Assembly (NCBI GenBank): GCA_020629155.1
Contig: JAHDDW010000005.1
Span: forward strand, 69,703-133,702
Length of the DNA: 64,000 nt
Origin: Acidimicrobiales bacterium
GTDB taxonomy: Bacteria > Actinomycetota > Acidimicrobiia > Acidimicrobiales > SZUA-35
Direction: 5' to 3'
Part shown: piece by piece, positions 37,811 to 61,384 of the stretch
How positions within the stretch are numbered: position 1 is the first letter of the stretch
How the letters are laid out: every line of letters starts with the position of its first letter
Position numbers and translations under genes: made by a program
Notes under the pieces: generated by a model
Databases searched by the model: none
The model's input: the letters and a program-made list of their open reading frames with translations, nothing else
What the model was told of the DNA's origin: nothing

Positions 37811-37855
37811 AAAGGGAGGGAAGCTGCACGCAGCTTCCCTCCCTTTGTATTTGTG
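37811..37855 (+). terminator. strong hairpin terminator
   Basis: AAAGGGAGGGAAGCTGC / GCAGCTTCCCTCCCTTT, a stem of about 16 bp directly after the stop of 36977-37786, followed by GTATTTGTG. Confidence 0.7.
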
Positions 37856-38037
37856 CAGTGGATTTGGTTTAGTCCGCAGTATTGTACTAACAGGACTCAT
37901 TGCTTTTGCTGGTTTGATGAGCGACCCAACCAGTCGATTTCCGTTTCTTTTCTTAGCCATCGGGTTGATAACTCTCGTTTTTGCATTGTTATCAAGAAAG
38001 ATACAGCTTACTACATCAAGATAAATCTAAGCCTTTG

Positions 38038-38070
38038 CTATTCGGCTACTATTCGGCTACTATTCGGCTA
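38038..38070. repeat. 3 x 11-bp perfect tandem repeat (CTATTCGGCTA) abutting the Fic start codon
   Basis: CTATTCGGCTA CTATTCGGCTA CTATTCGGCTA, then C-ATG (ATG at 38072). Confidence 0.9.
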
Positions 38071-38071
38071 C

Positions 38072-41224: not shown

Positions 41225-44200
41225 CTAGCTTTTGCGTAGCCGTCTGCGGCTTACCACTTTGATTGCGACGCCAGCAGTAAGCAAGATTGCAGCGTAGACG
41301 AGTAAGCTGTCAAGCAGCGAACTGCCTGTCTTTGGTAAGAACGGTACCTTTTCAGGTACAAACGGTAATGCTGTAGGTGGTGGTGTTTCGCCAACATAAT
41401 GCGATGCGTCGCTCGCAGAAGCCGAAATGTCAGTAGAACCGTCAGCGGTTTTCACTGCAATATAGTCTTCTGGATTTTGCGGCCAGGTTGAAGGATCAGA
41501 TGGGTCGCAGCCACAGGTCTCAGGGTCAGGCATAGCTGACGTGCCATCAATCGTGGCTGTGTTCTGATATGGCCCCTCGGTTGCAATCGCACTTGCACTA
41601 CACGTAACAGATTCACCAGGTAGCAGCAGCGCGATAACGTTAGAGCCGTCACCACAATCAACGGTCAAACTTGGGTCATCATCGCTTACTGTTATGGCAG
41701 TTGCGGCAGATGTACCTTCGTTTGTGACGACATAGCTCCACGTCACCGTGTCGCCAACGGTAACCGCTTTGGCGTCGCCTGCGCTGTCAGCGTCAGATCC
41801 GTTTGTGCTTTTCTCTACCGTCAATTTATTTTCGACGCCAAAGTAGTGTGACGGGTCGTCTGCTGTCATCGGTGGATACGGCTCGCCCGTCTCAGGGTCA
41901 ATTACTGGCTCATAATCGCTAGGGTCTGTTGGCCATGTTGACGGATCATCAGGGTCACAACCACAGGTTTCTGGGTTAGGTAACACTGGATCGCCGACAA
42001 GCTCAGCCAAGTTCTGGTATTGACCAGTTATCGCCGTGCCTGTGCCAGTACACGTAACAGATTCACCAGGCAACAGTAATGCGATAACGTTTGAGCCGTT
42101 ACCACAGTCAACGCTCACGCCTTGTGAGTCAGTCACCGTCGCGTTTGCAACAGCAACGTTTGTTGTGTTCATCACAACAAAGGTCCAGGTAACATCGCCG
42201 TCTGTCGAAATGTATGGCCCCACAGGGTCATCGGCATCAACATCATTGGTGTATTTCTCGATGGTGAGCTCGCCTTCTGAACCATAGTAATGCGAAGGAT
42301 CTTCATCGGTTACATCGTCGATAGGGTCACCGTTTTCATCGGTTGGTTCTTCAAAAGCGCTTTCATCATCTGGCCATGTTGATGGATCACTATGATCGCA
42401 ATCACAGTCTTCACCAGGCAACATTGGGGTTCCAGAAACTTCACCAAGGTTCATATATTGACCAGCGGTCGCTGTGCCCGTCGCAATACAGGTTACTTCG
42501 TCTCCTGGGAGCATGAAGTCGATAACGTTATCGCCGCCACCGCAGCTAACCGTTACACCTTGTGAGTCAGTAACGGTCACATCAGCAAGCGCTGTGTTGC
42601 CCGTGTTGATAACAACATAGGTCCATGTCACCAGGTCACCTGGAGCAATACCAGGGCCAGGCGTTGCATCAGCGTCGAAACCGTTTGTAGCTTTCTCGAT
42701 ATCGACACTTGGGACTGCGCCATAGTAATGTGATGGGTCTTTGTCTTCAACGGTTGGCCATGGTTCGCCGTCGTCATCGTTAGGAAGAGAGAACTCATCT
42801 GGATCATTTGGCCACGTTGTTGGGTCATCAAGATCGCAATCACAGGTCGCAGGATCAGGCAACACAGGAGTGCCGACAACCGTTGCGTTGTTTTCAAACT
42901 GGCCCTCTGTCGCTATGCCAGTTGCAGTACAGGTCACAACATCGTCAGGCAGCATAAGGTCGATAACGTTGTCACCGTTTGTGTCGCCGTAATGATCGGC
43001 ACAACTAATGCCTCCAGCAGGTGCAGGAATATCAGTAACCGTCACACCAGCAAGTGCAGTGTTGCCATCATTGGTCACGTCATAAGTCCATGTCACTGTA
43101 TCGCCAGGAACATAGGCTGGTCCTGTTGGATTATCAGCGTCGAAAATGCCGGTGCTCTTTTCAAGCTTCACACTTGGATCAGCGCCATAGTAATGCGATG
43201 GGTCTTCATCGGTTACTTCAGGCCACGGTTCGCCGTCTTCAGCGTCAGGTTGGAAATAGACATCTGGGTCGCCTGGCCATGTTGATGGGTCAGACAAATC
43301 ACAATCGCAAGTTTCTGGGTCAGGCAAATACGGATCGCCAGCCACATCACTTGTGTTAGCAAATGGGCCATCAACAGCAATGCCAGAGGCAGTACAAATA
43401 ACCGTTTCATTTGGCAGCAACAAGTCGATAACGTTGTCGCCATCGGTGTCGCTGTAATGATCGGCACAGCTGATGCCGCCAATTGGTGCTGGGATATCGT
43501 TAACTGTCACGCCAACAAGTGCTGTGTTTCCATCATTAAGCACCTCATAGGTCCACGTTATTGGATCGCCAGGAGCAATCGCTGGGCCAACAGGTTCGTC
43601 AGCTTGCACACCGTTTGTACGTTTTTCGATGTCAACTGACGGCCGCATACCATAGTAATGCGATGGATCTTCGTGCTCCACATTTGGCCATGGCTCGCCT
43701 TCATCATCAAGAAGATCTTCATACAAGCCTTCATCATCTGGCCACGACGTTGGGTCATCAAGATCACAACCACAGGTCGCAGGGTCAGGCAACACTGGGT
43801 CGCCGTTAACTGTTGCGTTGTTTTCAAACTGGCCGTCAATCGCACTGCCAGTGGCGGTACATGTCACCATGTCGCCAGGCAACATAATATCGATGATATG
43901 GTCGCCGTTGGTATCATCACGGAAATCGTCACAAACAATGCCACCAGATGGTGCTGGAATATCAGTTACGGTCACATCAAGCAACGTCGTGTTGCCGTTG
44001 TTATGCAACTCATAAGTCCAGGTAACCAAACCATTTAGTTTAATAGCTGGCCCAGTTTCATCATCAGCATCGAAGGTGTTTGTTTTCTTCTCCAAATCAA
44101 TGCTAGGGTTCGCGCCATAGTAATGCGACGGGTCGCTATCTTCCTCGTTCTCCAGATCTTCACCATCAGATCCGTCTAGATTATCGAACACGTCAGGATT

Positions 44201-47200
44201 CGTTGGCCACGTGTCAGGATCATCAGGATCACAATCGCAGGTTTCTGGGTTCGGCATATGCGGGTCACCAGAGACCGTTGCATTATTCGCAAACGGACCA
44301 GCAACAGCAGTGCCTGTCGCAGTACAAATAACCTCGTCACCAGGCAACAATATATCGATCACATTGTCGCCGTCGGTGTCACCGTTATGGTCAGCACAGC
44401 TAATACCGCCAGCAGGTGCTGGAATATCGGTTACTGTCGCAGGAACAAACGCTGTTTGTCCTTCGTTCCTAATAGTGTAGGTCCACGTTACTGGGTCGCC
44501 AGGGGCGATACCAGGGCCGTTCGGGTCGTCAGCTTGGACATCATTCGTTGTTTTTTCAATGTCAATGTCAGAACCGAGATAACGAACTTTCGCCTGGTTC
44601 ACCACTTCATCGACAATCTGATCAGAAACCACTTGCACGTCGTTCACATACCAATCGCCGAGAACAACCACAATAGGAACGTCAGTAACAAGTTGAATAT
44701 CAATCGACTCGCCAGCTTGCAAGTCAGAGATATCCCACATAATTTCTTGCGTGCCACCTGTACCTGCGCCAGCAGCGCCAACGTTATTGAGTGTTACCCG
44801 TGGGTCTGTCGAACTCCACGAGTTAAAGGTTAACGGCGCAGGCAAGAAGTCGGTCACCACAAGATTATCATTCGCAGTATCAGGTGCAGGGTTTGTCACC
44901 GTGATCGTCCAACTAGCTGTATTGCCAGACGACAAAATACCAAACTCTTGACGGTCAAGCGTTTTAGAAATCTCTAACGCATTTGCGCCGAGCGCAGCAA
45001 GTGACGGATCGCTAGAACGAGCACCAGTTACCGTGCCAGGCAGGGTAGAACCGTCCAAACCGAACGACTCGGCAGTAGCCCAGTTTGTCACGTTTAGCGG
45101 CGACTCTGCGCCAGGGGTAGCAGTGAACTCAATTTGCGCTGTATCGCCAGGAGCGATATCGCCAACAACCCATTCAAGGGTTTGCACGTTTGTTGTTAAC
45201 GTGCCTGTTGTAGGCTCGGCAGCGGTCCAACCAGTTCCGGTCGTTGTGCCGCCGTCATAGGTCCAGTGATATGGCAACGTGTCGTCGACAGTCACGCCAT
45301 AGGCTGGCGCTCCACCATCGTTTGCTACTTCAATACACCATGTATGTGGCTTGCCTTTTTCAGCAAACGCAAAGTTATTAGTACAGTCTCCAGAGTGCTT
45401 TTCCATCACAAGGTTAGGGCCAGAAAGCGGTGTCTCGGTTTCAACAACATCACCTTCATAGATGCGGTCATCGTCTTCAGGCGTTAACCCTGCACGAGCA
45501 CGGTAGCTGCTAATAGACGCTTCGTTGTCGGCAGTGCCGAAGCCATCAGAAAGATAACTGTCGGTAACCTCAGCGGTGTATTCCAACGTCACTACATCAC
45601 CAGGGTTCACCTGGGTGATAAACCACTGCAACTGTGGATCTATAGTCGTCCAACCGTTAGTAGTAACAGCACCAGGGAACGTCGGCGTAGCCATCACCGC
45701 GTTTTCTAACGCACCGTTAGGCGTGTCAGAAACTTCAACGGCATAGGCTGGAATTTCACCAGTGTTTTCAACCGTCACCGTATAGGTGATTGTCGAGCTG
45801 CCATCGGTCGGAGTCGCCGACGGAACAGCCACTTTATTGATTGTCAACTCTGGCTCTTCAATGTCGAGATCAGCCGTTGTTGTATCAGATGGGGGATAGG
45901 TTACATAACTTGATGGGTCAGGAATGGCGAGGGGATCGTCAAAGAGATTCTCTTCATTCGAATACCCAGTAACCGCATTTGTCAGCACGTCTTCGTCGAG
46001 AACCTGTGTGGTCCCGTCGTTATACGTGCCATCAACACGGACACGATATTTCATCGTCCAGGTATGCGGTGTTGCAGAACCTGGCATATCACCAAACCAC
46101 CACGCAAGCGTTGTGGTGCCGTCTGCGTTGACAACTTCGGCCAGCTCCAACACGTCAGCAGGCGTGAAACTGCCAGGGCAGCCGCCGCTGCACGTCACAC
46201 CTTGGTATGAATCAAAGGTGAGACCATCAGGAATAGTGTCTATATAGAGTAAGTCCATGTAGACATCAAACTCAGGCGCTGTCCACGACACCTCGTATTC
46301 AACAAAGTCGTTGATCGTCGCAGGGTTTGGCGTAACTGACTTTGTCGGTGTCGGCGGTGCTTTCGGATTCACAACGGTGATCTTGCCGTCGTCTTCAAAG
46401 TCAGAGTCATACCATTCTTTCACGAATGTAGAAGCATTGTTTTCCCAAATCAACAAGTTCTTTTCGTCTTTGTTAACAAGGATCGGAATGGTAATGGTAA
46501 TTGTTTCACCAGGGGCGATCGAATCAAAGAACCATTCAATATGGGTACTTTCGGTATTGCCACCAGTACAAACAGACTCGCTAAAGCCAGTGCCGCCAAC
46601 TGCTGTTGCATCACCACAGGTGTAACCACCATCAGCACCAAGCGGCGCTTGCGGATTGCCGCCAAGGGTTGCGGTGAGATCATCGACGATTGTTAAATCT
46701 TCGACAGGTACATCCAAACCGTTTGTGAATGTAATGGTATATTCAGGGTTTGTTTCGTCTGCAACAAAGTCATCGTCAGGAGTTTTTTCAAACGCGAGCG
46801 GGTTAGGCACAGGCGCAATCATGTCAAAAGAATCAGTTATCAGATTCGCAGGATCATAATCTGTTAACGCTTGAACGCTAACGTTGTTTTCCATAAAGTA
46901 TTTCTCGGTCGAGGTTGTGTCAGGGTCACAGTCAAACACTAACGGGTCAGGAATCGCATCGTAATGAATACGGATCCAGTTCGCTTTGTCAGACGCACCC
47001 TTGTCGTAGGTGCCTAAACTTGTACTATTGGAGTAACGCTCGCGAGAGTCGACATAGCGAACATCCCACGGTGCTGAACCATCATCGCCGCCGTCTTTCT
47101 CAAAGTTCCAGCTAAGTGTCTGGCCACCATTATGGTAGGTGCCAACGTTACAGCTTGTCTCGGTTGTTGCGTCAACCGCAGGGTCAACGAGCGGAATGGC

Positions 47201-50200
47201 AACATCGGCAGGGGTTATACCAAGATCTTCAGAGAAGGTCGCATCAGCATAGCCTAAGTTCCAGTTACCAGAAATAATTTTGGCTGAACCAGGAACATAG
47301 CGCCAGCCATAGGGCATCTGATCAGTCAGATCGAGATCTTCGATACGTTCCATACCGTCGATACGTAAATTAAGCGCCCAAGTATATGGTTGGGTTGGAT
47401 CGGCATCAAAAACATCAGCCCAAACTGCAGGGTTATCCATCGGACGATTCCACCAGCCACGATTGTTAGTCGCTATATCGTAGGTGTCACCATAATTTGT
47501 CCAACTCGTGTAGCTGTTGTAGACCGTGCCAAGCATATAGCCACGAAGATTCCACGGATAGCTAAACGGTGTCACTGCTCGTGAAGGAGGTTGTAGTAAA
47601 TCGGTGTATGCATCTGGTTGCTGATTCATCCAGTAATCACCAGCGTATGGGTCACCGAAAGTCTGTGGTGGGTTATAGGCGGCACTGGCTTGGAAAGATG
47701 CATTGGCAGCATATTCATAGCCACATGGCAAACGGCGGAACGGCCACAAGTTAGTTACGCCACATTCTGTAGGGTCTGTGAAAACGTTAGGAAACGGGTT
47801 CGCATCAACAGAAACATCACGATCTGCTGGGAATGGGAACTTAGAAACCTGCACAACGCTGTCATGGAACATCACTTCATCATGGGCGCGAATTTCTTGC
47901 CCCAGTGGTGTGCCGCCAGGAGCGTCAGTCCACGGCTGGAGGACCGCATCATTACGCCACATACCGTTCACTTCCCACGTGCCCGAGGCAGCATCATAGG
48001 CATCAGCGCCAGTTGGTTGATCGGTCCAACCGTCGATGCGTAGCTGATGGGTTAACGTTTCGCTTTGATTCGGTCCGATCGCTAAATTCCACTCAACAGG
48101 GTAGGTATTAGGAGCCGACGTTAAACCAGGGTGGCTGCCTGTATTGACACCAGAAATATCACAGGGGTATCGCACTACCGCAGGGTCATACGGATCGTCA
48201 ACGCCAGCTACACCACTAATTGCTGTTTTGTAGCGGACAAGGCCGTGGTAGGCGCGAGCGCCAAGAATACAGTCAGTTAGCGGCGTGTCAGTGATTGTGA
48301 TATCGTAGGCATCAACAGGCGACGCGTTTGTCACGGTGATTTCACACGACACGTTCGCGGTGCCGACGGGAGTCGCCGCAGGGTTCGCATCGTTTGTGCC
48401 TCCGAGGCCTTTACAGTTTTTATCCATCGTGATTAATGGGTATGCAACTGTGACAGACTCATCAGCGGTCGCCAATGAAGCAGAAGAAGAAACTTCGTCG
48501 CCCCATGCTTGACTTGGCAACGTTTCCCACGCATCGTCGCCGAGACCATCCCATTGGGCCATCACATCGTTATCAGAAGCAAACGCTCTAATCTGCACCT
48601 GGTTTGTATGTTCAACTTGGCTGAGCTCTTGAAACCAGTAGCTTGTCACGTCATCAAAAAGCGGGTCTGTTGCGCCGCCAGGCACACCAGTTGGCCACAG
48701 ATCAGCGATGCGTTGACGCTGCTCAAGAAGTGTCGGCGCTTCAACTGCATAGGTTAGACGAACAACACGGTCTTGATTTTCTGGGTCAACGTCAATATCG
48801 CCGAGGTACCAGCCAGCCGCACCGTTATTATCACGTGTGTACTGGTCAGAACTGCTCAGCGGCAATGACGCCGCATCGCTATGAAGCAGCGGTGTCATCG
48901 GTACCGCATCGATAGTATCAGCTGCACTTGAACAGCCAACCACGCAGTTATCAGTTAAGTAGTCATCGAGCTGCATTTCAGCAGGGCTATAAAGCCAATG
49001 CCCATAATAAAGCTCGCCAGCAGCAACAGGCCCTTGTGCGCCGACAGATACAGGGAAAATAGTTTGGTTTAAATGTAAGTTGCCAAGATCTTGGAACGTG
49101 TAAGGTGCTGGATCCCAGTTGCGGTGATTATTAATTTCGTCATAGACAATCACGTCTTTGCCGCTGTAGCCAGCAGGAATTGTCACATCAACGGTATAGG
49201 TAAAGGTGTCGCCGTAGGTGCCGTCGTTTTTGTTGACACGCTTTTTAATACTTGGCTGGCCTGAACCTTCAGTTAACATGGCGCCAGAATCTTTTCTAGT
49301 ACCAAAATCTTCAGTGTTCCAACTAAAACCGTTTACCACAAATTCGTTTGGATACGGCGGGTCGTCAAGTGCGATCACAGGCACGCGAATAACATGTCGA
49401 GTGTCGCTGCCGCTTGCGAGCGGATCATTTGCAATACCATACGGCAGTGGCGGAGGATCCCACGTAATGACAGTATCACCGTTGTTTTGAGCTACAGAAC
49501 TGGTGAAGTAGTCCTGCAAGTCAACATCGCCGTCGCCATCGTTATCGTTTGTCCAGGTAGACGGCACGACATCTATTGTTGCTTCTGCATAGTTAGGGTC
49601 GCCAACAGGCAAGTCGCCAGCATACATAAGGCCATCAGGTAGCGTGTCGACAAAATTGCCAGCCATACCAGCTTCGTCAGGAACCTGAATATACATAACA
49701 AATTCGTCTGCTTGGCCAGGCGCTAATTTAACTGCATCTTCAACATCAGGTGTTTTCCATACACGTGGAGGAGGTCCACCTGGACAACCGTGACGGTCTT
49801 TTTCTACAAATTCCCACGGTTCGCCGACGTTGTTACCACGATCGGTGTTGCCAGCAGCATCTTCTAGCGTTAAGTCAAACCAGATAGTTGCGCCACCTGG
49901 TTCAGTTTTCACAACGTCAATCAACAAGTCATAATGTGGCATAAAATCAGCTTCAGTTGCATGATTTGGGCTATGCGGGATGTCTTGCAATGAGGTGTTC
50001 CACACCAAGGTGTAGGTGCCTGGCTGTACCTCATCAAGAATCTGATCAGGTGCAGGGAACGGTGAATACGTTGTATAGGTAGGGTCGCCAGCGCCAGGGC
50101 CTGTGCCTTGCGTGCCGAGGTAGGTAAACTTATCTTGAATCGTGACACGAAGCTCTGGATTGAAACCAACGCCAGCATCAGGGAAACCGTCGCCGTCATT

Positions 50201-53200
50201 GTCAACAGTTGGGTACGGCGTGAGTGTTAAATCGCCATCAGGGTTACCGTTCACATCAAATCGGTCGCCGTTGCCAGCTTTGACCCAGAACTGCACTTCA
50301 GATCCGACGGGCGCTTCGGGTAATATGTCAGCGCCGCCGACACAACTCGCGTCGACTTCTGCCACAGGGGTGAATGCGTAGAGTCGAGAAATAGTTTGAC
50401 CAGTCGCGTATTGATTACCGCCTTCGTTCGCTGCTTCAAAATATTCACTCGTTGATGCGCGGTTCAAAATGATCATCGGATCTTGATTTTGTGTTGACTG
50501 TTGCGCATAAAAATCGTCGTTGTCAACCGTGGTCGCATCATAAGTGATAACGATCTGGCCGCCAATACCAGCACCTGCTGGGCCGTCAGGATCGCCAGCA
50601 AGAGGGCCAGCAAATTCACACTCTAGATTGTCGCCGCCGCCAACAGCGATAAAGTTACAGGTCACACCAGCAGGGGTGACATTCAATGACGACTGGTCGA
50701 TGTTCGCAAATGGTATGCCGCCAGGGTTCGCTAAATCGTCTTGAATGTCAATACTAAACGCTGGGCCAGAGCCGACATTGGTGACAATAATTTCATATTC
50801 AAATGACTCGCCAGCACTGATTTCAGTGACTGGGTCTCCGTCTTCGTTATAGACTGTTTTTTCAAAGTCGAGACGGGGCGTGACAATGTCGATCTCGGCA
50901 GGGTCTTTGGGATAAACACGGTCGTAATCAGCTGGGTCTGGGAAACCAGCTGGCGCGCCAGCAACAACGTTGCCAGATCCGCCAGGCACAGAACCATCTC
51001 GGTTGAAGATAGGTTTTGCTGTATTTATAAGTGGTTCTGAGAAACCGTCGATAATTTCGTCGCCAGAGTCAAAGTTTTTCTCAACTTCAACACGGAACGT
51101 TAGACGATAGACCGATGGTGTTTCGCTAGGATCTGGTGGCGTGTCGCCGAGGAACCAGCCAAGTTCGGTCACGCCGTTAAGGCCAGGGTTTTGTCCAACA
51201 TAGACACCGCCTTCAGATGCAGGACATGGTCCAGATACACAACTGACGGTCCAACCGCCAGCGCCAGGGATAGCACCAATCGCAGGTTCGTTGACGAGCG
51301 TCAACCCGTCAGGCATTTCGTCCATGATCCACAAGTCATAGTTCCATAACGTTGAGCTTGTTGGTACGGTCACATCGATAGAAAAGTCGAACTGTGCACC
51401 AGGGGCACCTTCCATAACCTCAACACCAGGGTGGATATCAACCGCTTCAACGGTTTTGCTAATTGACGGGCCAACTTCGACAGGAATGAGTGTGTACTCA
51501 CCTTGGGCTTGATGTACCGCAGGGTCAAAGGTGATGTTAGGGTTTGTTACATCAACGGTGTTTACACGAGTCAAGTTGCCATCAGGAGGATCTTCTCCAT
51601 TGTGCGCAAATGGAATGGTAATACGCACTTCGGCACCAGGTTGTAGCTGGCCGAGTGTAAAGTCAACTTGTTCGGTATAGCCAGGCAACGTTGCAGTGCC
51701 AGATGCAGCAGAGTTATCAACAAAGGTGCTCGGCACCTGACCAATCCACAAAATGCCTGTGCCAGGGTCTTGCGGCAAATATTCAAACGGTTCTGGCATA
51801 AGATCATCAACAACAAGACCACCAATAGGAACGGTCGAGGTGTTTTTGATGATAACTGTCCACGCGCCGTAGTTAATTTCTGATGGGAAATCGACGGTAC
51901 CGTTTTCATCGACATCAGCCGACCAGTTAATGGTCGCTCCAGCGCCAATTGCTGGACCTTTTTCTACTTCATATTCTGGGGCGACAAGTACAAGATCGGC
52001 TGGGTCTTCATCTTCATAGGTGGAACCAGCTTGGCTTTGATTATCGGTAAGATCTTCCCAGGTGAGCTCGGCTACGTTTTCATAGGTGCCAGGTTCAATT
52101 GGTCCGCAAACTTCGATGTAGGCCTCAAAGGTGACAGAAGCGCCAGGGGCGAGCGGGTTGTCGAGCGACCAGACACCAGGCGCGGTTTCAGTTACGCCAA
52201 CAGCGCCACTATCTAATCCGCCAGCAACTGTACATAAACTTGTTGGCGGCACGTCAGTAACTATGGCGTTGTATGCTGTTGTGTTAGAAACGTTTGTCAC
52301 GGTGAACACAAACGGGAACTGTGTGCCGATTGAGTTGGCTACGCCTGTTGTCGCTTCAGGCGCGGGTGATTTTTCGATAGTTAACTCTGGGTCTGGTATT
52401 TCAAGCGGTACGGTATCGCCTGGATTCTCTGTATAGGTTGCGCCGAGGTCGTCGCCATAACTGGGAATAGAGATAGCGTTATCAAGATCTCCGTTTTGTG
52501 TCGGCGTTGCTTCATAGGTGATGGTCTCGGTGCCAGTGAACGCAGCTAGCGGCCCAGGAATAGTGATTGTCAACGTGGCTCCATCCCAGGTACAAGTAGG
52601 AGCGCCACAAGGGTTTCCGCCGACGGTAATGCTGGCAGGGTCAATGTCTATCCCAACGGGGGTGTCAACAACGGTCAGGTTTGTCGCGTCGCGAGAACCG
52701 ACGTTTGTGATTTCAGAGGTATAGGTTGCGATGTCGCCGATTTCATAATCCCATTGTTCGCGGGTTTCGTCTGCTTCAACACCGTCGGTGGTCGCAACGG
52801 TTTTGTCTATCTCTAGAATCGGGCGGTCATAGATAACAATATCGCTGGTGCTTTCTTCGCCATCATAGCTAGGAGGGCTAGCAGTTGATGGGTTCACATC
52901 GCCGATGCGGTCAACGGTGTTCCAGTTGAGACGAAGATCGTTTTCGAATTCATCGAAGAAGACAACCTCGTCGCCATTCGCATACGCTGGATCAATCTGT
53001 GCGGTATAGGTGAGCACAAGTTGGCGAGGGTTAGGATCGAGTGGGATGCTGTTGGGATACCAGCCGATGCCGGTGCCACCACCAGCAAACACGGTTTGCG
53101 TTAATGGAGGGATGCCAGCTGGACAGTTAGCGGTGGCGGGTAGACAGGTTGCTGAGTCGTAGCTGATAAATTGCAGCCCGTCAGGAAGGTTGTCAAAGAT

Positions 53201-54508
53201 CGTAAAGTTCTCATACGTTGAGTTCGCTGGAATATCGATCGTCACAGTGTATTGAAAAGGCAGGTCGGTACCTGTGCGTTCAATATTTGCTTCTTTAGAA
53301 ACAGTTGGCGGTTCTGAGGCGACAAAAACTTCCGCGTCGTCATCGGCGAAGTTGTCGACGGTGGTGTTGTCGTCGCTGCCATCAGGAAGATACGAGAAAC
53401 CAACGTAGGCACTGTTGACAAGTGAATCTGACGGATCTAGGCCTGTGGCTATTTCCATCTCTTCGGTGATAGTCACATCGTTGCCTGGCAAAATATCGCC
53501 AAGGGTATAGGTGACTTCTCGTGTTGTCGCATCCCAAACACCACCGCCTGTTGTTGTGCCACCGTCTGCGACGGGGTTGCCTGCTGCGTCAAGTGGAATC
53601 AAACCAGCTGGAACGCTGTCTACCACAATCACGTCACGTGCTGGTGCGACTGCTAACGAACCATTCGTTGGGTTGCTTTGTGGCACCGTGATATCTAGAT
53701 CATATTCAACAACGTTACCTGCGTTATAGACATTTGCAGGTGCCGTTGTTTTTGCAATTTCGATGTATGGTTCAACAACTGCAACGGCGCTTCTGATTCG
53801 GTCAGTGTCACGGTTTGATGGGTCGGTCGAAACGCTGGCGAAACATTCGCCGCCGTCGTGCACATCGCCCCATGTTTCACCTGTCGGAGGAACTTGCGCA
53901 CGGTAGGAAAGAACAAATACTTCTCCGCCTGCTGGCACGCTATAGCTGAGTTCGCCGTTACCGTTTTGGTCGGCAAGCATCATTGCAACATCGCCTGGGA
54001 AGAGCAAACGAAACGTTGGGTTGGTGCCGCTTGTGTCGGTCTCGATAACCCACTGTGTTAGGTCAGGTTGTGTGCCTACGACCCAAGGTTGTGATACTGC
54101 TGCGGTAAAAGGGTTAGGCGATCCGCCTGGTGCAATCGCAAAGTCGACGCTAGCCATGTCGACGTTGAGATTTGATGGCAGCACAGTCAGTTCCATACGG
54201 GAAGAGAAATAGGTTGACCCGTCTGGGCGCTGCAAAATATCTTGAAAAATATCACCTTCGTCGAAGGTAACCTCTTGGGTGAAGTTGACCCATTCGCCAG
54301 CGACAGCACCTTGCACACCAGACTGTGTGACAGTTTCTGGCGTTGCATCGGGCCTTGCGAGACAGGCCTGAGTCAGGTCTTGCGTCGCTGGATTAGGATC
54401 AGCTGACGCTGTTTGCAGCGGCACTAATGCCGCTGCTAAGATCAGCACCGCAAAGAGCGGGCGGATCATAAATGGAACGTTATGGATTGCTTTTTTTACA
54501 GTTAACAC
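41225..54508 (-). CDS. giant LPXTG-anchored cell-surface protein (4427 aa) built from DUF11-like / Ig-like beta-sandwich repeats
   Basis: Uninterrupted 13.3-kb ORF. N-terminal signal peptide (MIRPLFAVLILAAALVPLQTASA). At least 12 repeats of the DUF11-type pattern (for example ITYTVTVENTGEIPAYAVEVSDTP). C-terminal sorting signal LPKTG (41324-41338), hydrophobic span and RRRLRKS tail. Confidence 0.9.
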   Translation of the reverse strand: MLTVKKAIHNVPFMIRPLFAVLILAAALVPLQTASADPNPATQDLTQACLARPDATPETVTQSGVQGAVAGEWVNFTQEVTFDEGDIFQDILQRPDGSTYFSSRMELTVLPSNLNVDMASVDFAIAPGGSPNPFTAAVSQPWVVGTQPDLTQWVIETDTSGTNPTFRLLFPGDVAMMLADQNGNGELSYSVPAGGEVFVLSYRAQVPPTGETWGDVHDGGECFASVSTDPSNRDTDRIRSAVAVVEPYIEIAKTTAPANVYNAGNVVEYDLDITVPQSNPTNGSLAVAPARDVIVVDSVPAGLIPLDAAGNPVADGGTTTGGGVWDATTREVTYTLGDILPGNDVTITEEMEIATGLDPSDSLVNSAYVGFSYLPDGSDDNTTVDNFADDDAEVFVASEPPTVSKEANIERTGTDLPFQYTVTIDIPANSTYENFTIFDNLPDGLQFISYDSATCLPATANCPAGIPPLTQTVFAGGGTGIGWYPNSIPLDPNPRQLVLTYTAQIDPAYANGDEVVFFDEFENDLRLNWNTVDRIGDVNPSTASPPSYDGEESTSDIVIYDRPILEIDKTVATTDGVEADETREQWDYEIGDIATYTSEITNVGSRDATNLTVVDTPVGIDIDPASITVGGNPCGAPTCTWDGATLTITIPGPLAAFTGTETITYEATPTQNGDLDNAISIPSYGDDLGATYTENPGDTVPLEIPDPELTIEKSPAPEATTGVANSIGTQFPFVFTVTNVSNTTAYNAIVTDVPPTSLCTVAGGLDSGAVGVTETAPGVWSLDNPLAPGASVTFEAYIEVCGPIEPGTYENVAELTWEDLTDNQSQAGSTYEDEDPADLVLVAPEYEVEKGPAIGAGATINWSADVDENGTVDFPSEINYGAWTVIIKNTSTVPIGGLVVDDLMPEPFEYLPQDPGTGILWIGQVPSTFVDNSAASGTATLPGYTEQVDFTLGQLQPGAEVRITIPFAHNGEDPPDGNLTRVNTVDVTNPNITFDPAVHQAQGEYTLIPVEVGPSISKTVEAVDIHPGVEVMEGAPGAQFDFSIDVTVPTSSTLWNYDLWIMDEMPDGLTLVNEPAIGAIPGAGGWTVSCVSGPCPASEGGVYVGQNPGLNGVTELGWFLGDTPPDPSETPSVYRLTFRVEVEKNFDSGDEIIDGFSEPLINTAKPIFNRDGSVPGGSGNVVAGAPAGFPDPADYDRVYPKDPAEIDIVTPRLDFEKTVYNEDGDPVTEISAGESFEYEIIVTNVGSGPAFSIDIQDDLANPGGIPFANIDQSSLNVTPAGVTCNFIAVGGGDNLECEFAGPLAGDPDGPAGAGIGGQIVITYDATTVDNDDFYAQQSTQNQDPMIILNRASTSEYFEAANEGGNQYATGQTISRLYAFTPVAEVDASCVGGADILPEAPVGSEVQFWVKAGNGDRFDVNGNPDGDLTLTPYPTVDNDGDGFPDAGVGFNPELRVTIQDKFTYLGTQGTGPGAGDPTYTTYSPFPAPDQILDEVQPGTYTLVWNTSLQDIPHSPNHATEADFMPHYDLLIDVVKTEPGGATIWFDLTLEDAAGNTDRGNNVGEPWEFVEKDRHGCPGGPPPRVWKTPDVEDAVKLAPGQADEFVMYIQVPDEAGMAGNFVDTLPDGLMYAGDLPVGDPNYAEATIDVVPSTWTNDNDGDGDVDLQDYFTSSVAQNNGDTVITWDPPPLPYGIANDPLASGSDTRHVIRVPVIALDDPPYPNEFVVNGFSWNTEDFGTRKDSGAMLTEGSGQPSIKKRVNKNDGTYGDTFTYTVDVTIPAGYSGKDVIVYDEINNHRNWDPAPYTFQDLGNLHLNQTIFPVSVGAQGPVAAGELYYGHWLYSPAEMQLDDYLTDNCVVGCSSAADTIDAVPMTPLLHSDAASLPLSSSDQYTRDNNGAAGWYLGDIDVDPENQDRVVRLTYAVEAPTLLEQRQRIADLWPTGVPGGATDPLFDDVTSYWFQELSQVEHTNQVQIRAFASDNDVMAQWDGLGDDAWETLPSQAWGDEVSSSASLATADESVTVAYPLITMDKNCKGLGGTNDANPAATPVGTANVSCEITVTNASPVDAYDITITDTPLTDCILGARAYHGLVRYKTAISGVAGVDDPYDPAVVRYPCDISGVNTGSHPGLTSAPNTYPVEWNLAIGPNQSETLTHQLRIDGWTDQPTGADAYDAASGTWEVNGMWRNDAVLQPWTDAPGGTPLGQEIRAHDEVMFHDSVVQVSKFPFPADRDVSVDANPFPNVFTDPTECGVTNLWPFRRLPCGYEYAANASFQASAAYNPPQTFGDPYAGDYWMNQQPDAYTDLLQPPSRAVTPFSYPWNLRGYMLGTVYNSYTSWTNYGDTYDIATNNRGWWNRPMDNPAVWADVFDADPTQPYTWALNLRIDGMERIEDLDLTDQMPYGWRYVPGSAKIISGNWNLGYADATFSEDLGITPADVAIPLVDPAVDATTETSCNVGTYHNGGQTLSWNFEKDGGDDGSAPWDVRYVDSRERYSNSTSLGTYDKGASDKANWIRIHYDAIPDPLVFDCDPDTTSTEKYFMENNVSVQALTDYDPANLITDSFDMIAPVPNPLAFEKTPDDDFVADETNPEYTITFTNGLDVPVEDLTIVDDLTATLGGNPQAPLGADGGYTCGDATAVGGTGFSESVCTGGNTESTHIEWFFDSIAPGETITITIPILVNKDEKNLLIWENNASTFVKEWYDSDFEDDGKITVVNPKAPPTPTKSVTPNPATINDFVEYEVSWTAPEFDVYMDLLYIDTIPDGLTFDSYQGVTCSGGCPGSFTPADVLELAEVVNADGTTTLAWWFGDMPGSATPHTWTMKYRVRVDGTYNDGTTQVLDEDVLTNAVTGYSNEENLFDDPLAIPDPSSYVTYPPSDTTTADLDIEEPELTINKVAVPSATPTDGSSTITYTVTVENTGEIPAYAVEVSDTPNGALENAVMATPTFPGAVTTNGWTTIDPQLQWFITQVNPGDVVTLEYTAEVTDSYLSDGFGTADNEASISSYRARAGLTPEDDDRIYEGDVVETETPLSGPNLVMEKHSGDCTNNFAFAEKGKPHTWCIEVANDGGAPAYGVTVDDTLPYHWTYDGGTTTGTGWTAAEPTTGTLTTNVQTLEWVVGDIAPGDTAQIEFTATPGAESPLNVTNWATAESFGLDGSTLPGTVTGARSSDPSLAALGANALEISKTLDRQEFGILSSGNTASWTITVTNPAPDTANDNLVVTDFLPAPLTFNSWSSTDPRVTLNNVGAAGAGTGGTQEIMWDISDLQAGESIDIQLVTDVPIVVVLGDWYVNDVQVVSDQIVDEVVNQAKVRYLGSDIDIEKTTNDVQADDPNGPGIAPGDPVTWTYTIRNEGQTAFVPATVTDIPAPAGGISCADHNGDTDGDNVIDILLPGDEVICTATGTAVAGPFANNATVSGDPHMPNPETCDCDPDDPDTWPTNPDVFDNLDGSDGEDLENEEDSDPSHYYGANPSIDLEKKTNTFDADDETGPAIKLNGLVTWTYELHNNGNTTLLDVTVTDIPAPSGGIVCDDFRDDTNGDHIIDIMLPGDMVTCTATGSAIDGQFENNATVNGDPVLPDPATCGCDLDDPTSWPDDEGLYEDLLDDEGEPWPNVEHEDPSHYYGMRPSVDIEKRTNGVQADEPVGPAIAPGDPITWTYEVLNDGNTALVGVTVNDIPAPIGGISCADHYSDTDGDNVIDLLLPNETVICTASGIAVDGPFANTSDVAGDPYLPDPETCDCDLSDPSTWPGDPDVYFQPDAEDGEPWPEVTDEDPSHYYGADPSVKLEKSTGIFDADNPTGPAYVPGDTVTWTYDVTNDGNTALAGVTVTDIPAPAGGISCADHYGDTNGDNVIDLMLPDDVVTCTATGIATEGQFENNATVVGTPVLPDPATCDCDLDDPTTWPNDPDEFSLPNDDDGEPWPTVEDKDPSHYYGAVPSVDIEKATNGFDADATPGPGIAPGDLVTWTYVVINTGNTALADVTVTDSQGVTVSCGGGDNVIDFMLPGDEVTCIATGTATAGQYMNLGEVSGTPMLPGEDCDCDHSDPSTWPDDESAFEEPTDENGDPIDDVTDEDPSHYYGSEGELTIEKYTNDVDADDPVGPYISTDGDVTWTFVVMNTTNVAVANATVTDSQGVSVDCGNGSNVIALLLPGESVTCTGTGTAITGQYQNLAELVGDPVLPNPETCGCDPDDPSTWPTDPSDYEPVIDPETGEPYPPMTADDPSHYFGVENKLTVEKSTNGSDADSAGDAKAVTVGDTVTWSYVVTNEGTSAATAITVSDDDPSLTVDCGDGSNVIALLLPGESVTCSASAIATEGPYQNTATIDGTSAMPDPETCGCDPSDPSTWPQNPEDYIAVKTADGSTDISASASDASHYVGETPPPTALPFVPEKVPFLPKTGSSLLDSLLVYAAILLTAGVAIKVVSRRRLRKS
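41400..44575 (-). repeat. eight tandem ~130-145-aa coding modules at the C-terminal end of the giant protein
   Basis: Each module reads DPSHYYG-x-PS(V/I)D(I/L)EK.TN..DAD...GP.I..GD.VTWTY.V.N.GNTAL..VTV.D...G(I/V)SC...NVID.LLPG..V.CTA.G.A..G.F.N...V.G.P.LP.PETC(D/G)CD.DDP(S/T)TWP. Eight copies were counted in the translation. Confidence 0.85.
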
Positions 54509-55391: not shown

Positions 55392-55748
55392 CTACGCTGT
55401 GGTGGTCGCGCCTTCAGCTGAAGTTGTCGCTTCTATAGTCGTGTCTGTCGTATCGCTTTCAGCCAAACTTGCTGCGGTTGTTTCGGCGTCTGTACTTGGG
55501 ACAGCTGAAACACTTGGACCTGTAGAATCAACAACAGTAGGAATTGGTTCCAGGTCTGTTTGTTGCGGCTCGTCACTGCCACCAGTTAAAGACAGTAGCC
55601 AAAGCACAAAACCAATAGCGACAACAACGATTACACCGATAATAATTTGTTGTTTGCGTTTGCTTTTAGCCTCAACCTTTTGCTGCTCTTCTTTGCGAAG
55701 TTGGCGGTTAGCTTTTTGTCGTTCTCTTTTTTGACTTCCCACGGTCAT
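55392..55748 (-). CDS. single-pass membrane protein with basic N-terminus and Thr/Ser-rich tail
   Basis: 118 aa: KRERQKANRQLRKEEQQK... then TM IIIGVIVVVAIGFVLWLLSL, then a T/S/A-rich tail. Its stop lies 2 nt before the aat start. Confidence 0.5.
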   Translation of the reverse strand: MTVGSQKRERQKANRQLRKEEQQKVEAKSKRKQQIIIGVIVVVAIGFVLWLLSLTGGSDEPQQTDLEPIPTVVDSTGPSVSAVPSTDAETTAASLAESDTTDTTIEATTSAEGATTTA

Positions 55749-55801: not shown

Positions 55802-56025
55802 CTAGATGATTTATTCCAAGTCTTCTTTCTCAGTTAAACACCTGTCTTTCCCAGCTACGCCCCGTCATTCCCAGCTACGCCCCGTCATTCCCAGCTACGA
55901 CTGGGAATCTAACCAAGGAGAGATCCCCAATCAAGTTGGGGATGACGTGATCAAGTTGGGGATGACGAGATCAAGTAGGATGACTGGAACAAGTGGGGAT
56001 GACGTGATCATGCGTAAATAAAATC
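55802..56025. repeat. composite palindromic repeat element, copy A (one recognisable terminus)
   Basis: CTAGATGATTTATTCCAAG terminus. About 2.5 x 20-bp unit CCAGCTACGCCCCGTCATTC (55851-55900). Hairpin ATTCCCAG-CTACGA-CTGGGAAT (55887-55908). AAGGAGAG spacer. Hairpin ATCCCCAA-TCAAG-TTGGGGAT (55923-55943). About 3 x 20-bp unit GATCAAGTTGGGGATGACGW, to about 56010. Confidence 0.85.
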
Positions 56026-56136: not shown

Positions 56137-56781
56137 ATGAAAAATGTACTACGTGCTTCTGCACTTCTAGTAGCTCTAACAGTTGCGGGTGCTGCATGCG
56201 CAAGTGACGATCCAGAAACAACAGACGATGGTGCAACAACTGTCGATGCTGGCGACGATACAGCAACTACTGTTGACGGTGACGCTATGGAAGACGGTGA
56301 CAAAGATAAAGAAGGCGACGCTATGGAAGATGGCGACAAAGACGCTGCTGCTGAAGAACCAGCAACCGTTGCAGCCATCGTTATTGATTCTGAAGATCAC
56401 ACAATTCTTGAACAAGCGTTGGCGAAAGCTGAACTTGTAGAAACTCTTGAAGGTGACGGTCCGTTCACCGTATTCGCTCCAACAGATGCAGCGTTTGAAG
56501 CATACCTTGCAGAGGCTGATATTGAAGCTGCTGATCTTCTTGCAAGCGAAGACCTTGCTAAAATCCTAACTGGTCACGTTGTGGCTGGTCCGGCAATCAA
56601 AGCTGAAGCAATTACAGAAACAGCTCAAGAATTAGACACTGTTGCTGAAACAAAAATTGAAGCGGTTATCACTGACGGTAAAGCTACAGTAGGCGGCGCA
56701 GAAGTAAGCACCCCTGATGTTGTTGCGGGCAATGGTATCGTTCACGTTATCGACAGCGTTATTCTCCCTGCTGCTGAGTAA
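56137..56781 (+). CDS. fasciclin (FAS1) domain lipoprotein
   Basis: Signal peptide plus lipobox (LTVAGAAC), an acidic linker, then the FAS1 blocks GPFTVFAPTDAAF and GNGIVHVIDSVILP. Confidence 0.85.
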   Translation: MKNVLRASALLVALTVAGAACASDDPETTDDGATTVDAGDDTATTVDGDAMEDGDKDKEGDAMEDGDKDAAAEEPATVAAIVIDSEDHTILEQALAKAELVETLEGDGPFTVFAPTDAAFEAYLAEADIEAADLLASEDLAKILTGHVVAGPAIKAEAITETAQELDTVAETKIEAVITDGKATVGGAEVSTPDVVAGNGIVHVIDSVILPAAE

Positions 56782-59695: not shown

Positions 59696-60577
59696 ATGAG
59701 AAAAACCCTTGTTCTTTTTGCCCTTTTCCTCGGTATCGCCGCAGCTTGTTCAAGCGGCAAAGACGCTATCACTTCAGGAAGCGATGATGCGGAGACAACC
59801 GAGTCGCAAGACGGAACTGTTCTGATTGACAGCGGTGACACGCTTGCTGACGAAAACAAAAATGCTAGTTCTTCAGACATGTCTGATGGCAGTGCATCTT
59901 CTGACAGCTCGAACTCAGCTACTCCTGTAACTACTAGCACTTCATCGGCTGGGCAAGATAGCAAGTCGCCACCAACGACTCAGCCGTATCAAATTGGCGC
60001 AGCATCTGGACAAACCATGGCTGTGGTTGGTGTCGACTATAACGATACGCTCAATTTCCGCACAGACCCTAATCCAAGCGCATCGATCGTGGTCTCAGTG
60101 CCTCCGCTTGCAGACAATCCAGCTATCGTTTCGCAAGGCCAAGGGGTGCTAACCAACAATGGTGCATGGTGGAATGTGGAAGTTGGCGGCACGCAAGCAT
60201 GGGCTAATGTTACTTTTCTCGCTTCGCTAGGGACGTCGCTTCCGATTAGCAATGAAATTACGCCGAAATTGCCATCACAGCAGGCAGCGTCAGCAGAACT
60301 ATTAGTTAAAGCAGTTGCTGGCACTCGCACAGGCGATTTGGTGAAAACGACGATAGTGCAACAACCAGAAGCAAGCGATGCCATAGGCGGCGAAGTTATC
60401 TTTGATGTAACAGGCTACCTCGATGACTCAGTGCAAGGGGAGCGTATCGCAATGCAGTACAAATTTGTATGGGACAACCCGACGTCTGCAAATCGTAGCG
60501 TTATCGCATATGAGTTTCTTTCAGCTTCTTCTCAAGCACTGTGCAGCCGAGGAACTCTAAACGGCGTGTGTGTCTAG
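59696..60577 (+). CDS. lipoprotein with Ser/Thr/Asp-rich linker and SH3b-like domain
   Basis: MRKTLVLFALFLGIAAACSSG lipobox. ...LNFRTDPNPSASIVVSVP......GAWWNVEVGGTQAWANVTFL resembles a bacterial SH3 domain. Confidence 0.6.
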   Translation: MRKTLVLFALFLGIAAACSSGKDAITSGSDDAETTESQDGTVLIDSGDTLADENKNASSSDMSDGSASSDSSNSATPVTTSTSSAGQDSKSPPTTQPYQIGAASGQTMAVVGVDYNDTLNFRTDPNPSASIVVSVPPLADNPAIVSQGQGVLTNNGAWWNVEVGGTQAWANVTFLASLGTSLPISNEITPKLPSQQAASAELLVKAVAGTRTGDLVKTTIVQQPEASDAIGGEVIFDVTGYLDDSVQGERIAMQYKFVWDNPTSANRSVIAYEFLSASSQALCSRGTLNGVCV

Positions 60578-60887
60578 ATAGTTTATTCCAAGGTGTTTGT
60601 ATCGCATCATCCCCAACGTAACCCGTCATCCCACTTGATCTCGTCGTCCCCTACTTAGTCTTGTCATCCCACTTGATCTCGTCGTCCCCTACTTAGTCTT
60701 GTCATCCCACTTGATCTCGTCATCCCCAACTTGATTGGGGATCTCCTTGGTTAGATTCCCAATCGTAGCTGGGAATGACGGTGGTGGTAGCTGGGAATGA
60801 CGGTGGTGGTAGCTGGGAATGACGTTGGTGGTGGCTGGGAGTGACACGTGTTTAGCTGAGAAAGAGGACTTGGAATAAACCATCTAG
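60574..60887. mobile_element. MITE-like composite palindromic repeat element, copy B (both termini present)
   Basis: The termini CTAGATAGTTTATTCCAAGG (60574-60593) and the reverse complement of 60868-60887, CTAGATGGTTTATTCCAAGT, form inverted repeats. Interior: 38-bp x 2.7 array (60625-60727), two 7-8-bp hairpins, and a 22-bp x ~3.5 array (60766-60845). Collinear with copy A in the opposite orientation. Confidence 0.7.
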
Positions 60888-61384
60888 CGTCTGAGCAGCT
60901 TTTGTTTCAACCAGCGCCACGGGATAAACCGAGGCGTCTGTTTCATATGTCGCTCGTAGTCTTCGTATCTTTCGCAGAGTTGGTTCTCTTCCCAAATAGC
61001 CTTTTGGTTAAAAAAGACAGCAGTCGCCACGCCGATGAAAACATGGAGCCAACTGCTGGACAATACAACAAGCCCAGCAACCGCAAGTAGAACGCCGCTA
61101 TATATAGGATGGCGTACAACTTGATAGAAGCCGCCAGTTCTGAGCTGGCCATGTTTGCGAGGCACAGGCGTTGGTGTTAACGACGAGCCAAGGTGTAGCG
61201 CTGCGATAGCCATGACAATAAAACCTGCGATAGTGCAAATTCGTCCAACCAGAACAAGCCAAGGTTGCATTGGCCAGTCATCGCTGCCTGGAAGCAGCAC
61301 AAGCAAACCGATCGCTATGAACTGCACCGTAACGTAGAGCCAGCCAACTATAGTGCGGCGGGCCCTGTTTGTGTCACTGTTCAT
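60884..61384 (-). CDS. isoprenylcysteine carboxyl methyltransferase (ICMT/PEMT)-family membrane methyltransferase
   Basis: Multi-TM protein with TGGFYQVVRHPIYSGVLL, the ICMT-family motif. Confidence 0.75.
   Translation of the reverse strand: MNSDTNRARRTIVGWLYVTVQFIAIGLLVLLPGSDDWPMQPWLVLVGRICTIAGFIVMAIAALHLGSSLTPTPVPRKHGQLRTGGFYQVVRHPIYSGVLLAVAGLVVLSSSWLHVFIGVATAVFFNQKAIWEENQLCERYEDYERHMKQTPRFIPWRWLKQKLLRR

Follow-up and report, generated by a model that had tools for sequence, protein, structure and literature searches.

The element and its surroundings

The DNA analysed here comes from an Acidimicrobiales bacterium (assembly GCA_020629155.1, contig JAHDDW010000005.1, positions 69,703–133,702 of the forward strand). 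This whole stretch of 64,000 nt is called the window, and all coordinates are window positions; with 6 kb beyond it, it makes up the readable part of the source genome, 70 kb in all. Between two convergent genes of the window lies a 314-bp element at 60574–60887, here called E1, and a related element, E2, is found at 55802–56012. We propose that E1 and E2 are probably non-coding, non-autonomous clusters of CGTC-tagged repetitive extragenic palindromic (REP) hairpins, belonging to a super-family that includes the dRS3/NTS repeats of Neisseria and the Ssn-related motifs. The parts of E1, including its terminal inverted repeat (TIR) arms and the two hairpins that we call X and Y, are as follows.

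60574–60887 (no strand): E1, the complete composite element, forming the whole spacer between the convergent genes 59696–60577 (+) and 60884–61384 (−)
60574–60592 (+): left TIR arm, CTAGATAGTTTATTCCAAG, which includes CTAG; the TAG at 60575–60577 is the stop codon of a 293-aa lipoprotein-like gene
60601–60732 (+): array of truncated hairpin-Y units, with tag GTC, 5′ arm ATCCC(C)A and loop-like CTTGAT/CTTAGT
60718–60745 (+): complete hairpin Y, cGTC ATCCCCAA cttga TTGGGGAT ctc, with CGTC tag, 8-bp stem, 5-nt loop and CTC tail
60746–60751 (no strand): 6-nt spacer between the tails of the head-to-head (HH) dimer; with the tails it reads CTCCTTGGTTAG, which holds the AAGGAG of the minus strand
60752–60780 (−): complete hairpin X, cGTC ATTCCCA gctacgat TGGGAAT cta, with CGTC tag, 8-nt loop and CTA tail
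60765–60845 (−): array of truncated hairpin-X units, CGTCATTCCCAGCTAC + CACCAC, 22 nt × 3.7, on the tag side of hairpin X
60846–60887 (−): terminal module common to E1 and E2, ending in the right TIR arm at 60869–60887

The sequence features that the original prediction had described for 60574–60887 are all present and non-random. According to the open reading frame (ORF) coordinates, the element fills the convergent spacer completely: both flanking genes stop at the TAG within a terminal CTAG, no spacer base lies outside E1, and at the right end it is the complement of CTAG that provides the stop codon (60884–60886) of a gene for an ICMT-like protein. The TIRs are genuine. The repeat finder gave two arms of 19 nt with 95% complementarity, the right one reading CTAGATGGTTTATTCCAAG when reverse-complemented, and three matches to the motif ATRGTTTATTCCAAG, at up to two mismatches, stand in the window where 0.22 would be expected; the third match marks E2. 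CTAG is common, with 204 sites in 64 kb, and a single CTAG flank would mean little; it stands at all three TIR-bearing ends, two in E1 and one in E2.

Tandem Repeats Finder located 2.8 copies of a 38-bp unit at 60625–60732 (97% matches) and 3.7 copies of a 22-bp unit at 60765–60845 (94% matches). The left array as a whole has a 19-nt sub-period within its 38-nt period (× 2.8), and its last unit runs into the complete hairpin Y. The hairpins ATCCCCAA-N5-TTGGGGAT and ATTCCCA-N8-TGGGAAT are found as described, with CTCCTT, which is AAGGAG on the other strand, between them; the stem of hairpin X has 7 bp, or 8 bp if a G·T pair is counted. A Shine–Dalgarno role for AAGGAG was considered and rejected, as the string is formed by a REP tail and the spacer, and there is no start codon at a fitting distance.

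The suggestion that E1 could fold into one long interrupted hairpin is borne out by the folding of both strands in comparison with shuffled controls. The RNA folding energies are −118.5 kcal/mol for the plus strand (z = −4.5) and −116 kcal/mol for the minus strand (z = −6.1), and folding as DNA gives −44.5 kcal/mol (z = −2.5). Independent Logan short-read contigs (sample SRR14415274) match the element exactly for 93 nt at the right end and 81 nt at the left, before they break off within the arrays. The ends of E1 are thus confirmed, and the array copy numbers rest on the window's own assembly.

The second copy

The original prediction hinged on the existence of further copies, and E2 is one within the window itself, 4.6 kb from E1 and in the opposite orientation. 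Its parts are as follows.

55802–56012 (+): E2, a one-ended copy inverted relative to E1, between the divergent genes 55392–55748 (−) and 56137–56781 (+)
55802–55820 (+): CTAG and TIR-like arm, followed by the terminal module to about 55843
55844–55899 (+): hairpin-X half-unit array, 20 nt × 2.8
55883–55911 (+): hairpin X, 8-bp stem ATTCCCAG, 6-nt loop
55920–55947 (−): hairpin Y, 8-bp stem ATCCCCAA, as in E1
55930–56010: hairpin-Y half-unit array, 20 nt × 4.2

E2 is 78–80% identical to the reverse complement of E1 over about 230 nt, and its modules follow in the same order: CTAG, TIR-like arm, a terminal module of ~42 nt, the GTCATTCCCAGCTAC array, the two central hairpins, and the ATCAAGTTGGGGATGAC array. 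The terminal modules agree at 38 of 42 aligned positions and the central 63 nt at 62 of 63, plus a 2-nt indel. No remnant of a second TIR was found in E2; the other end of E1 aligns with the distal flank of E2 no better than shuffled sequence does. A Logan contig of 4,717 nt (L116) runs exactly from E2 to E1, so both elements break the short-read assembly.

The TIR end of E2 and the right end of E1 point outward around six genes, for fasciclin, WhiB, NfeD, STAS, response regulator and lipoprotein proteins. The arrangement looks like a composite transposon E2...E1, a reading that is unsupported: the bracketed segment has the same composition as its surroundings, and nothing else speaks for it.

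The hairpin core

A strict hairpin detector (tag–stem–loop–stem), with shuffled sequence as control, found exactly four complete hairpins in the window, one pair in each element, compared with 0.08 expected in shuffles. In all four, cGTC stands directly before a stem of 7–8 bp that starts with AT, and a C stands directly after it. The array units of both elements also begin with CGTC or GTC, and each element contains one heterodimer with the CGTC tags pointing outward.

This anatomy is that of the CGTC REPs surveyed by Di Nocera, De Gregorio & Rocco (2013, BMC Genomics 14:522, PMC3733652). CGTC REPs have a CGTC (or TGTC/CCTC) tag, an 8–9-bp stem starting with AT, a loop of 4–5 nt and a 3-nt tail near CCA. 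They form mostly HH dimers with the tags outside, occur sometimes inside genes, and have no dedicated transposase. The families, CGTC-1 to -4, are dispersed, with tens to thousands of units per genome, and REPs lie mostly downstream of genes, where they are thought to act as RNA hairpins (PMC3733652). The dRS3 repeat of Neisseria is the CGTC-1 family (PMC3733652). The likeness of the core to dRS3, which had been called formal, is real and goes further; both hairpins fit the super-family of which dRS3 is the CGTC-1 member.

The published description is reproduced by 456 hairpins in the hairpin-Y loci from elsewhere, which supports the family fit. These hairpins have 8-bp stems, loops of 4–5 nt and a TGTC or CGTC tag, with compensatory stem changes around a constant CTTGA loop; CTTGA is the loop of our hairpin Y and the commonest loop among them. 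The tail is CCA in 330 (72%), and CTA (36) and CTC (34) come next.

A number of observations weigh against this assignment. The loops of hairpin X have 6 nt in E2 and 8 nt in E1, compared with a stated family range of 4–5 nt, and the tails, CTC for Y and CTA for X, depart from the CCA consensus. The published search strings for dRS3 (ATTCCC-N8-GGGAAT), NTS (CGTCATTCCCGCGMAVGCGGGAATCYRG) and the degenerate SRM have no match in the window: the gap between ATTCCC and GGGAAT in E1 and E2 is 10 nt, not 8, and the hairpin-Y consensus fails the SRM string, which excludes AA/TT at the inner end of the stem. Because these literal strings are unmatched, we place E1 and E2 in the broader CGTC-REP description, not in NTS/SRM proper. 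There are just two clusters in the 64-kb window, with no isolated units elsewhere in it, and the strict detector found no CGTC-type hairpins in three loci of the two nearest relatives found. The 2013 survey does not report the family from Actinobacteria (PMC3733652), and according to Chenal et al. (2025, Nat Commun 16:2388, PMC11893778) Ssn homologues are found mostly in Gram-negative bacteria. A GIY-YIG/Ssn gene is absent from the window, from the 6 kb beyond it and from locus L001. Finally, transcription, cleavage and mobility of E1 and E2 are predictions.

Occurrence of the hairpins and modules elsewhere

The original prediction did not recognise the element as a described repeat family, and for the core this was wrong. 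Besides the family resemblance to the CGTC-tagged REP super-family (PMC3733652), a scan of metagenomes with ATCCCCAATCAAGTTGGGGAT, the 21 nt that are the most conserved part of hairpin Y, found this sequence exactly in at least 120 contigs of 27–71% GC, often in several copies per contig. In these contigs the hairpin reads CTGG-ATCCCCAA-TCAAG-TTGGGGAT-GAC and is regularly paired with GTC-ATTCCCGC-GAAA-GCGGGAAT-CCAG and with runs of GGGGATGAC units. Four viral contigs (IMG/VR, L237–L240) likewise contain hairpin Y without a mismatch. The partner hairpin type, as a rule in numerous copies, is found in Neisseria, Azospirillum, Legionella, sphingomonads, Photobacterium and Aeromonas, among others; in Azospirillum the partner hairpins form a compact, inverted, intergenic HH pair.

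The hairpins can also be translated. CGTC hairpins yield recurrent pseudo-ORF peptides in the metagenome loci, and on plasmid pMC4 of Sphingopyxis indica (L242, NZ_CP076395.1 32500–32580) a CGTC-REP HH dimer lies in frame within the annotated ileS gene, to which it adds a peptide of the type '...PRESGDPERASANPTLDSRFRGND...'.

Matches to E1 in other organisms are limited to E1 positions ~130–180, which is the hairpin core. The TIR, the terminal module and the exact array units have no matches in the sequences fetched from other organisms, and the hairpin-Y loci lack the TIR core. A sub-terminal 23-mer of E1 has no match in the metagenome collection, and the whole of E1 has none in the plasmid collection. 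The 18-nt TIR, a short and AT-rich query, hit at least 114 loci in the genome collection, and all of these are just chance matches of 19–20 nt among the matches listed. Rfam searches of the window and of nine rich loci, at gathering and relaxed thresholds, returned only tRNAs and meaningless weak matches, such as 'Prion pseudoknot' on a GGTGGTGG repeat. The composite as a whole would thus be known only from E1 and E2.

As to the plasmid collection (PLSDB), the records NZ_CP119140.1, NZ_CP119142.1 and NZ_AP026896.1 are labelled plasmid, and several are whole chromosomes (N. gonorrhoeae, 2.17 Mb; Aeromonas caviae, 4.9 Mb), so that their label is an error.

Half-unit arrays

The original prediction described two variable-number tandem repeat arrays. 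They are tandem repeats as described; their nature is different from what that name implies, because they consist of truncated REP units, and other organisms have the same module. In each unit the hairpin is cut short to the tag, the tag-proximal arm and part of the loop, followed by 6–10 further bases. A survey of 125 loci found 51 such half-unit arrays in 31 of them, with periods mostly of 20–24 nt; examples are L120, L123, L136, L138 and L156 (within L117–L240). About half of the arrays have a G-rich spacer of the GGTGG type, which recurs in contigs of 30% to 61% GC. In the termite-gut contig L123 the 22-nt unit GGGATGAC-GGTAGAGGTGGATC is close to the GGAATGAC-GGTGGTGGTAGCTG of E1.

The arrays are polar. 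Where an array adjoins a complete hairpin of its own orientation, as 42 of 48 do, it lies on that hairpin's tag side and never on the other; for the remaining 6 no complete hairpin was detected. All four arrays of E1 and E2 stand on the tag side of a complete hairpin, and the tag side is the side on which SsnA cuts (PMC11893778). The 2013 survey calls tandem, head-to-tail (HT) arrangements negligible (PMC3733652), and no description of half-unit arrays was found in the consulted parts of either paper (PMC3733652, PMC11893778).

The Ssn-type GIY-YIG partner

SsnA is a single-domain GIY-YIG protein (cd10448) that binds the NTS hairpin, CGTCATTCCCGCGMAVGCGGGAATCYRG. Its binding is confined to single-stranded DNA (ssDNA) in one orientation, the cut falls a few nucleotides upstream of the tag, and neither RNA nor double-stranded DNA is acted on. 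The C right after the stem is critical for binding, and SsnA reduces transformation with DNA that carries NTS. Homologues of Ssn with SRM hairpins on their flanks occur widely, for the most part in Gram-negative bacteria (all from PMC11893778).

An ORF of ~95 aa of the GIY-YIG type recurs in the hairpin-Y loci. In several metagenome loci a hairpin lies 9–31 nt from the GIY-YIG gene or overlaps its 3′ end; hairpin Y itself is 9–29 nt from Ssn-like genes in L221 and L228 and overlaps the 3′ end of one in L216. Among 12 taxonomically spread isolates, seven have CGTC REPs of the host's own type within 200 nt of a homologous GIY-YIG gene. In four of these seven (Aeromonas caviae, Azospirillum lipoferum, Rhizobium sp. 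CIAT894 and Shinella), such REPs stand on either side of the gene, tags outward. The GIY-YIG ORFs give just a weak, sub-threshold match to NCBIfam, and their assignment rests on the RefSeq annotation of tblastn matches and on 53% identity to an N. gonorrhoeae locus.

In the 4.9-Mb Aeromonas caviae sequence (NZ_AP026896.1; L247, 1713454–1713841) BLAST places the CGTC-1 hairpin at only two sites, one of them 65 nt upstream of a small GIY-YIG (Ssn-like) gene. The strict detector finds a hairpin with the stem ATCCCCGC 9 nt downstream of this gene, tags outward. The locus looks like a minimal hairpin–ssn–hairpin unit and is consistent with Chenal et al. 2025. The association of GIY-YIG genes with these hairpins was considered as a new finding and dropped as such, because it is already published (PMC11893778).

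Comparison with known systems

E1 shares with the CGTC REPs the unpaired CGTC tag, a 7–8-bp stem starting with AT, the CTTGA loop (in hairpin Y), the 3-nt tail and the HH heterodimer, as well as a position between convergent genes with no adjacent transposase (PMC3733652). It differs from them in its tails (CTC/CTA instead of CCA), in the loop of hairpin X (6–8 nt, with 6 in E2), and in a dimer spacer of just 6 nt. Furthermore, long arrays of truncated units flank the dimer, and the whole is enclosed in 19-bp TIRs. The hosts in the survey are Proteobacteria, Chlorobi, Bacteroidetes, Spirochaetes and Thermotogae (PMC3733652), whereas the host of E1 is an Acidimicrobiia-like actinobacterium.

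With dRS3/NTS, the NIME mosaics and SRM, E1 and E2 have in common CGTC followed by ATTCCC...GGGAAT and then C, non-palindromic flanks that give the hairpin an orientation, and mosaic clustering (PMC11893778). Unlike those repeats, they match none of the published search strings, and no ssn gene is present in the 70 kb. By lineage the host is a Gram-positive organism, and natural transformation is not known for it, so a role in transformation is not implied for E1 and E2.

QMITE2 of Coxiella burnetii (Wachter et al. 2018, BMC Genomics 19:247, PMC5896051) is a miniature transposable element with inverted repeats (MITE), and like E1 it has TIRs and a REP core. It is 150–190 bp long, its shorter versions are bare REPs, and it lies in 3′ untranslated regions (UTRs), often overlapping or supplying stop codons (PMC5896051). 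The core of QMITE2 is a GTAG REP that is the target of IS1111, its direct repeats are variable (7–11 nt), and there are about 50 copies per genome (PMC5896051). In E1 there is a CGTC dimer together with internal arrays and flanks of CTAG, and only two copies are known.

REPINs and BIMEs with their RAYT enzyme resemble E1 in that two inverted REPs and a spacer are the presumed mobile unit, and in their mosaic clusters. Their presumed mobiliser is a single-copy, trans-acting, hairpin-specific ssDNA enzyme, as we propose for E1. The tag is GTAG in REPINs and BIMEs and CGTC in E1, the enzyme is HUH/Y1 as opposed to GIY-YIG, and the window has no RAYT gene. The BOX elements of Streptococcus pneumoniae are also small, non-coding and intergenic, and their conserved end modules pair with one another on either side of a varying number of internal tandem units. 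BOX is unrelated to E1 in sequence and has neither CGTC hairpins nor a TIR/CTAG boundary.

Alternative explanations

E1 could instead be a TIR-dependent MITE, as the original prediction had proposed. A DDE transposase encoded elsewhere in the genome, either of the IS5 group with a 4-bp CTAG duplication or of the IS630 type with TA duplicated inside CTAG, would recognise ATRGTTTATTCCAAG and move the 314-bp unit, and the REP hairpins would be passengers or an ancestral core, as in Coxiella QMITE2. We consider this unlikely, although the TIRs, 19 bp and 95% complementary, lie exactly at the element boundaries, CTAG is found at each TIR-bearing end, and the two copies have the 42-nt terminal module in common. 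Removing the element and one CTAG would leave convergent genes with overlapping TAG stops; this is plausible because convergent genes overlap by 9 nt in a relative (L246), and the end of the ICMT-like protein falls within the length range of its homologues. There is also the precedent of a TIR-bounded MITE with a REP core that abuts stop codons and has bare REPs as short forms (PMC5896051). However, E2 has a single TIR with no remnant of another, and profile searches of the window genes, in agreement with the original prediction, found no transposase, nor any RAYT, IS110 or GIY-YIG gene. Only the two copies, 4.6 kb apart, are known in the data available, and the terminal module was in no genome, metagenome or plasmid sequence fetched, among the matches listed. 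CTAG is frequent here and could belong to the TIR, and no empty site was found, the relatives' loci from the ICMT-like homologue search not being syntenic. What stands of the MITE-like description is a discrete, non-coding, structured repeat with TIRs, CTAG flanks and a second copy; a transposase in the window, an empty site and a second TIR in E2 are missing from it.

It is also doubtful that the elements are kept as functional RNA, with E1 serving as a bidirectional terminator or 3′-UTR stabiliser and E2 as a regulatory element in its divergent promoter region. E1 begins and ends at the two stop codons, there is no other terminator-like site between the flanking genes, and both strands fold far better than shuffled sequence. 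The z values are better for E1(−) and E2(+), which represent the same element strand (−6.1 and −4.2), than for the opposite strands (−4.5 and −2.9), with G·U pairs contributing on that strand. The usual position of REPs 3′ of genes, and the view of them as RNA hairpins (PMC3733652), points in the same direction. Yet the elements have no U-tract and no Rfam family, and E2 lies upstream of both its neighbours, so a terminator role cannot explain both copies. SsnA does not interact with RNA (PMC11893778). Furthermore, the exact loop sequence is kept across phyla, which suggests protein recognition more than hairpin stability. A small protein gene, read from a terminal ATG as a 64-aa frame in E1 (−, 60689–60883) and a 71-aa frame in E2 (+, 55806–56021), is extremely improbable. 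Both copies are open from the same ATG, and the net difference in array length is a multiple of 3, so that EIPNQVGDD is in frame in both. Nevertheless, we reject a coding role because neither of the array periods, 20 and 22 nt, is divisible by 3, each of the five nucleotide differences in the first 18 codons is non-synonymous, and there is no homologue among 5.8 billion clustered proteins. There is also no ribosome-binding site, and the peptide is simply translated repeats, 'WIPNQVGDD' and 'LDSRFRGND' arising wherever such hairpins are translated. A CsrA-type sponge RNA, iterons and a parS-like protein-binding array were considered from the anatomy of E1 and dropped once the hairpins had been identified.

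Proposed origin and mechanism

As clusters of CGTC REPs, E1 and E2 would carry hairpins that act as ssDNA structures. An enzyme encoded in trans, either a GIY-YIG nuclease of the Ssn type or another one specific for hairpins, would recognise them in one orientation. We have moderate confidence that such an enzyme, encoded elsewhere and most plausibly of the Ssn type, would be responsible for the spread of the hairpins. The arrays, again with moderate confidence, may have arisen at the tag side, where slippage or cut-and-repair would leave them as by-products. The composite was probably copied as a unit at least once, because E1 and E2 have the terminal module, both arrays and the dimer in common.

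Insertion probably took place at a CTAG where the convergent genes shared overlapping TAG stops, with both frames kept, although our confidence in this step is lower. The C-terminal length of the ICMT-like protein and the overlapping convergent genes of L246 are compatible with it. The CTAG flanks fit a 4-bp duplication of the IS5 type, a TA duplication of the IS630 type inside CTAG, or a longer TIR equally well. Since CTAG is common here, insertion cannot be separated from a reading in which CTAG is part of the TIR.

The most likely local effect of E1 at present would be that of a strong, long hairpin at the 3′ end of both convergent transcripts, a putative terminator or 3′-end stabiliser, as proposed for REPs generally. 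The location of E2 in a divergent promoter region implies that a terminator role is not the reason for the element's existence.

These proposals can be joined into a wider scenario, in which Ssn/CGTC hairpins have colonised the Actinomycetota and have been packaged in a composite with TIRs at its boundaries, which uses CTAG as its insertion site and is mobile as a whole, and in which the half-hairpin arrays are a conserved, so far undescribed module and could be the footprints of nuclease cut-and-repair. With all of its parts taken together, we regard this scenario as rather improbable.

Other features of the window

The window (47% GC) is ordinary chromosome, with prs, pth, L25, ksgA, thrC, hom, folK, nhaA and other housekeeping genes, and a WhiB regulator. 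Identity between the flanking ICMT-like protein and its best homologue is only 56%, and the named homologues come from Ilumatobacteraceae, Acidimicrobiales and Actinomycetota; the host would thus appear to be an Acidimicrobiia-like actinobacterium without a close sequenced relative.

A 4,427-aa ORF at 41225–54508 (−), with 7 DUF11 and 8 DUF7507 repeats and Cna-B/pilin-like segments, probably encodes a surface adhesin, and a gene for a WapI-like immunity protein lies just past its 3′ end, at 40394–40837 (+). A perfect 11-nt tandem repeat, CTATTCGGCTA × 3.1 (100% matches), is found at 38038–38071 within an ORF of the Fic/DOC family (37853–39097); with a period that is not divisible by 3, a different number of copies would alter the frame of this ORF. 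A tRNA gene at 25321–25393 (−) is followed by an ORF of the Gp49/HigB-like toxin family at 25715–26299 (+), and the two may be a small integrated remnant. At 28302–29456 (−) there is an ORF of the serpin family (Pfam, E = 6e-28); serpins are uncommon in bacteria.

Implications

The hairpin family of the core is known already. With the actinobacterial host, the half-unit arrays and the TIR/CTAG wrapper, E1 and E2 are a modest extension of what has been described. For annotation, such elements matter in that they break short-read assemblies, as seen at both E1 and E2, and generate spurious small ORFs.

With such a copy, a streamlined actinobacterium would join the known hosts of the family. If a full-length insertion sequence had GATRGTTTATTCCAAG termini and the same internal arrays, the hairpins would be ordinary subterminal transposase sites. 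How CGTC REPs spread is unexplained in the two papers, with no dedicated transposase in the 2013 survey and no mechanism of multiplication in the 2025 work on Ssn (PMC3733652, PMC11893778). With two hairpin types, polar arrays, a TIR/CTAG boundary and apparently preserved overlapping stops, E1 is a compact natural substrate for questions of array generation and mobility by Ssn-type enzymes. The most interesting lead is the polarity of the arrays and their position at the side on which Ssn cuts. If the arrays are the footprints of cut-and-repair, they would provide a first handle on the multiplication of these repeats.

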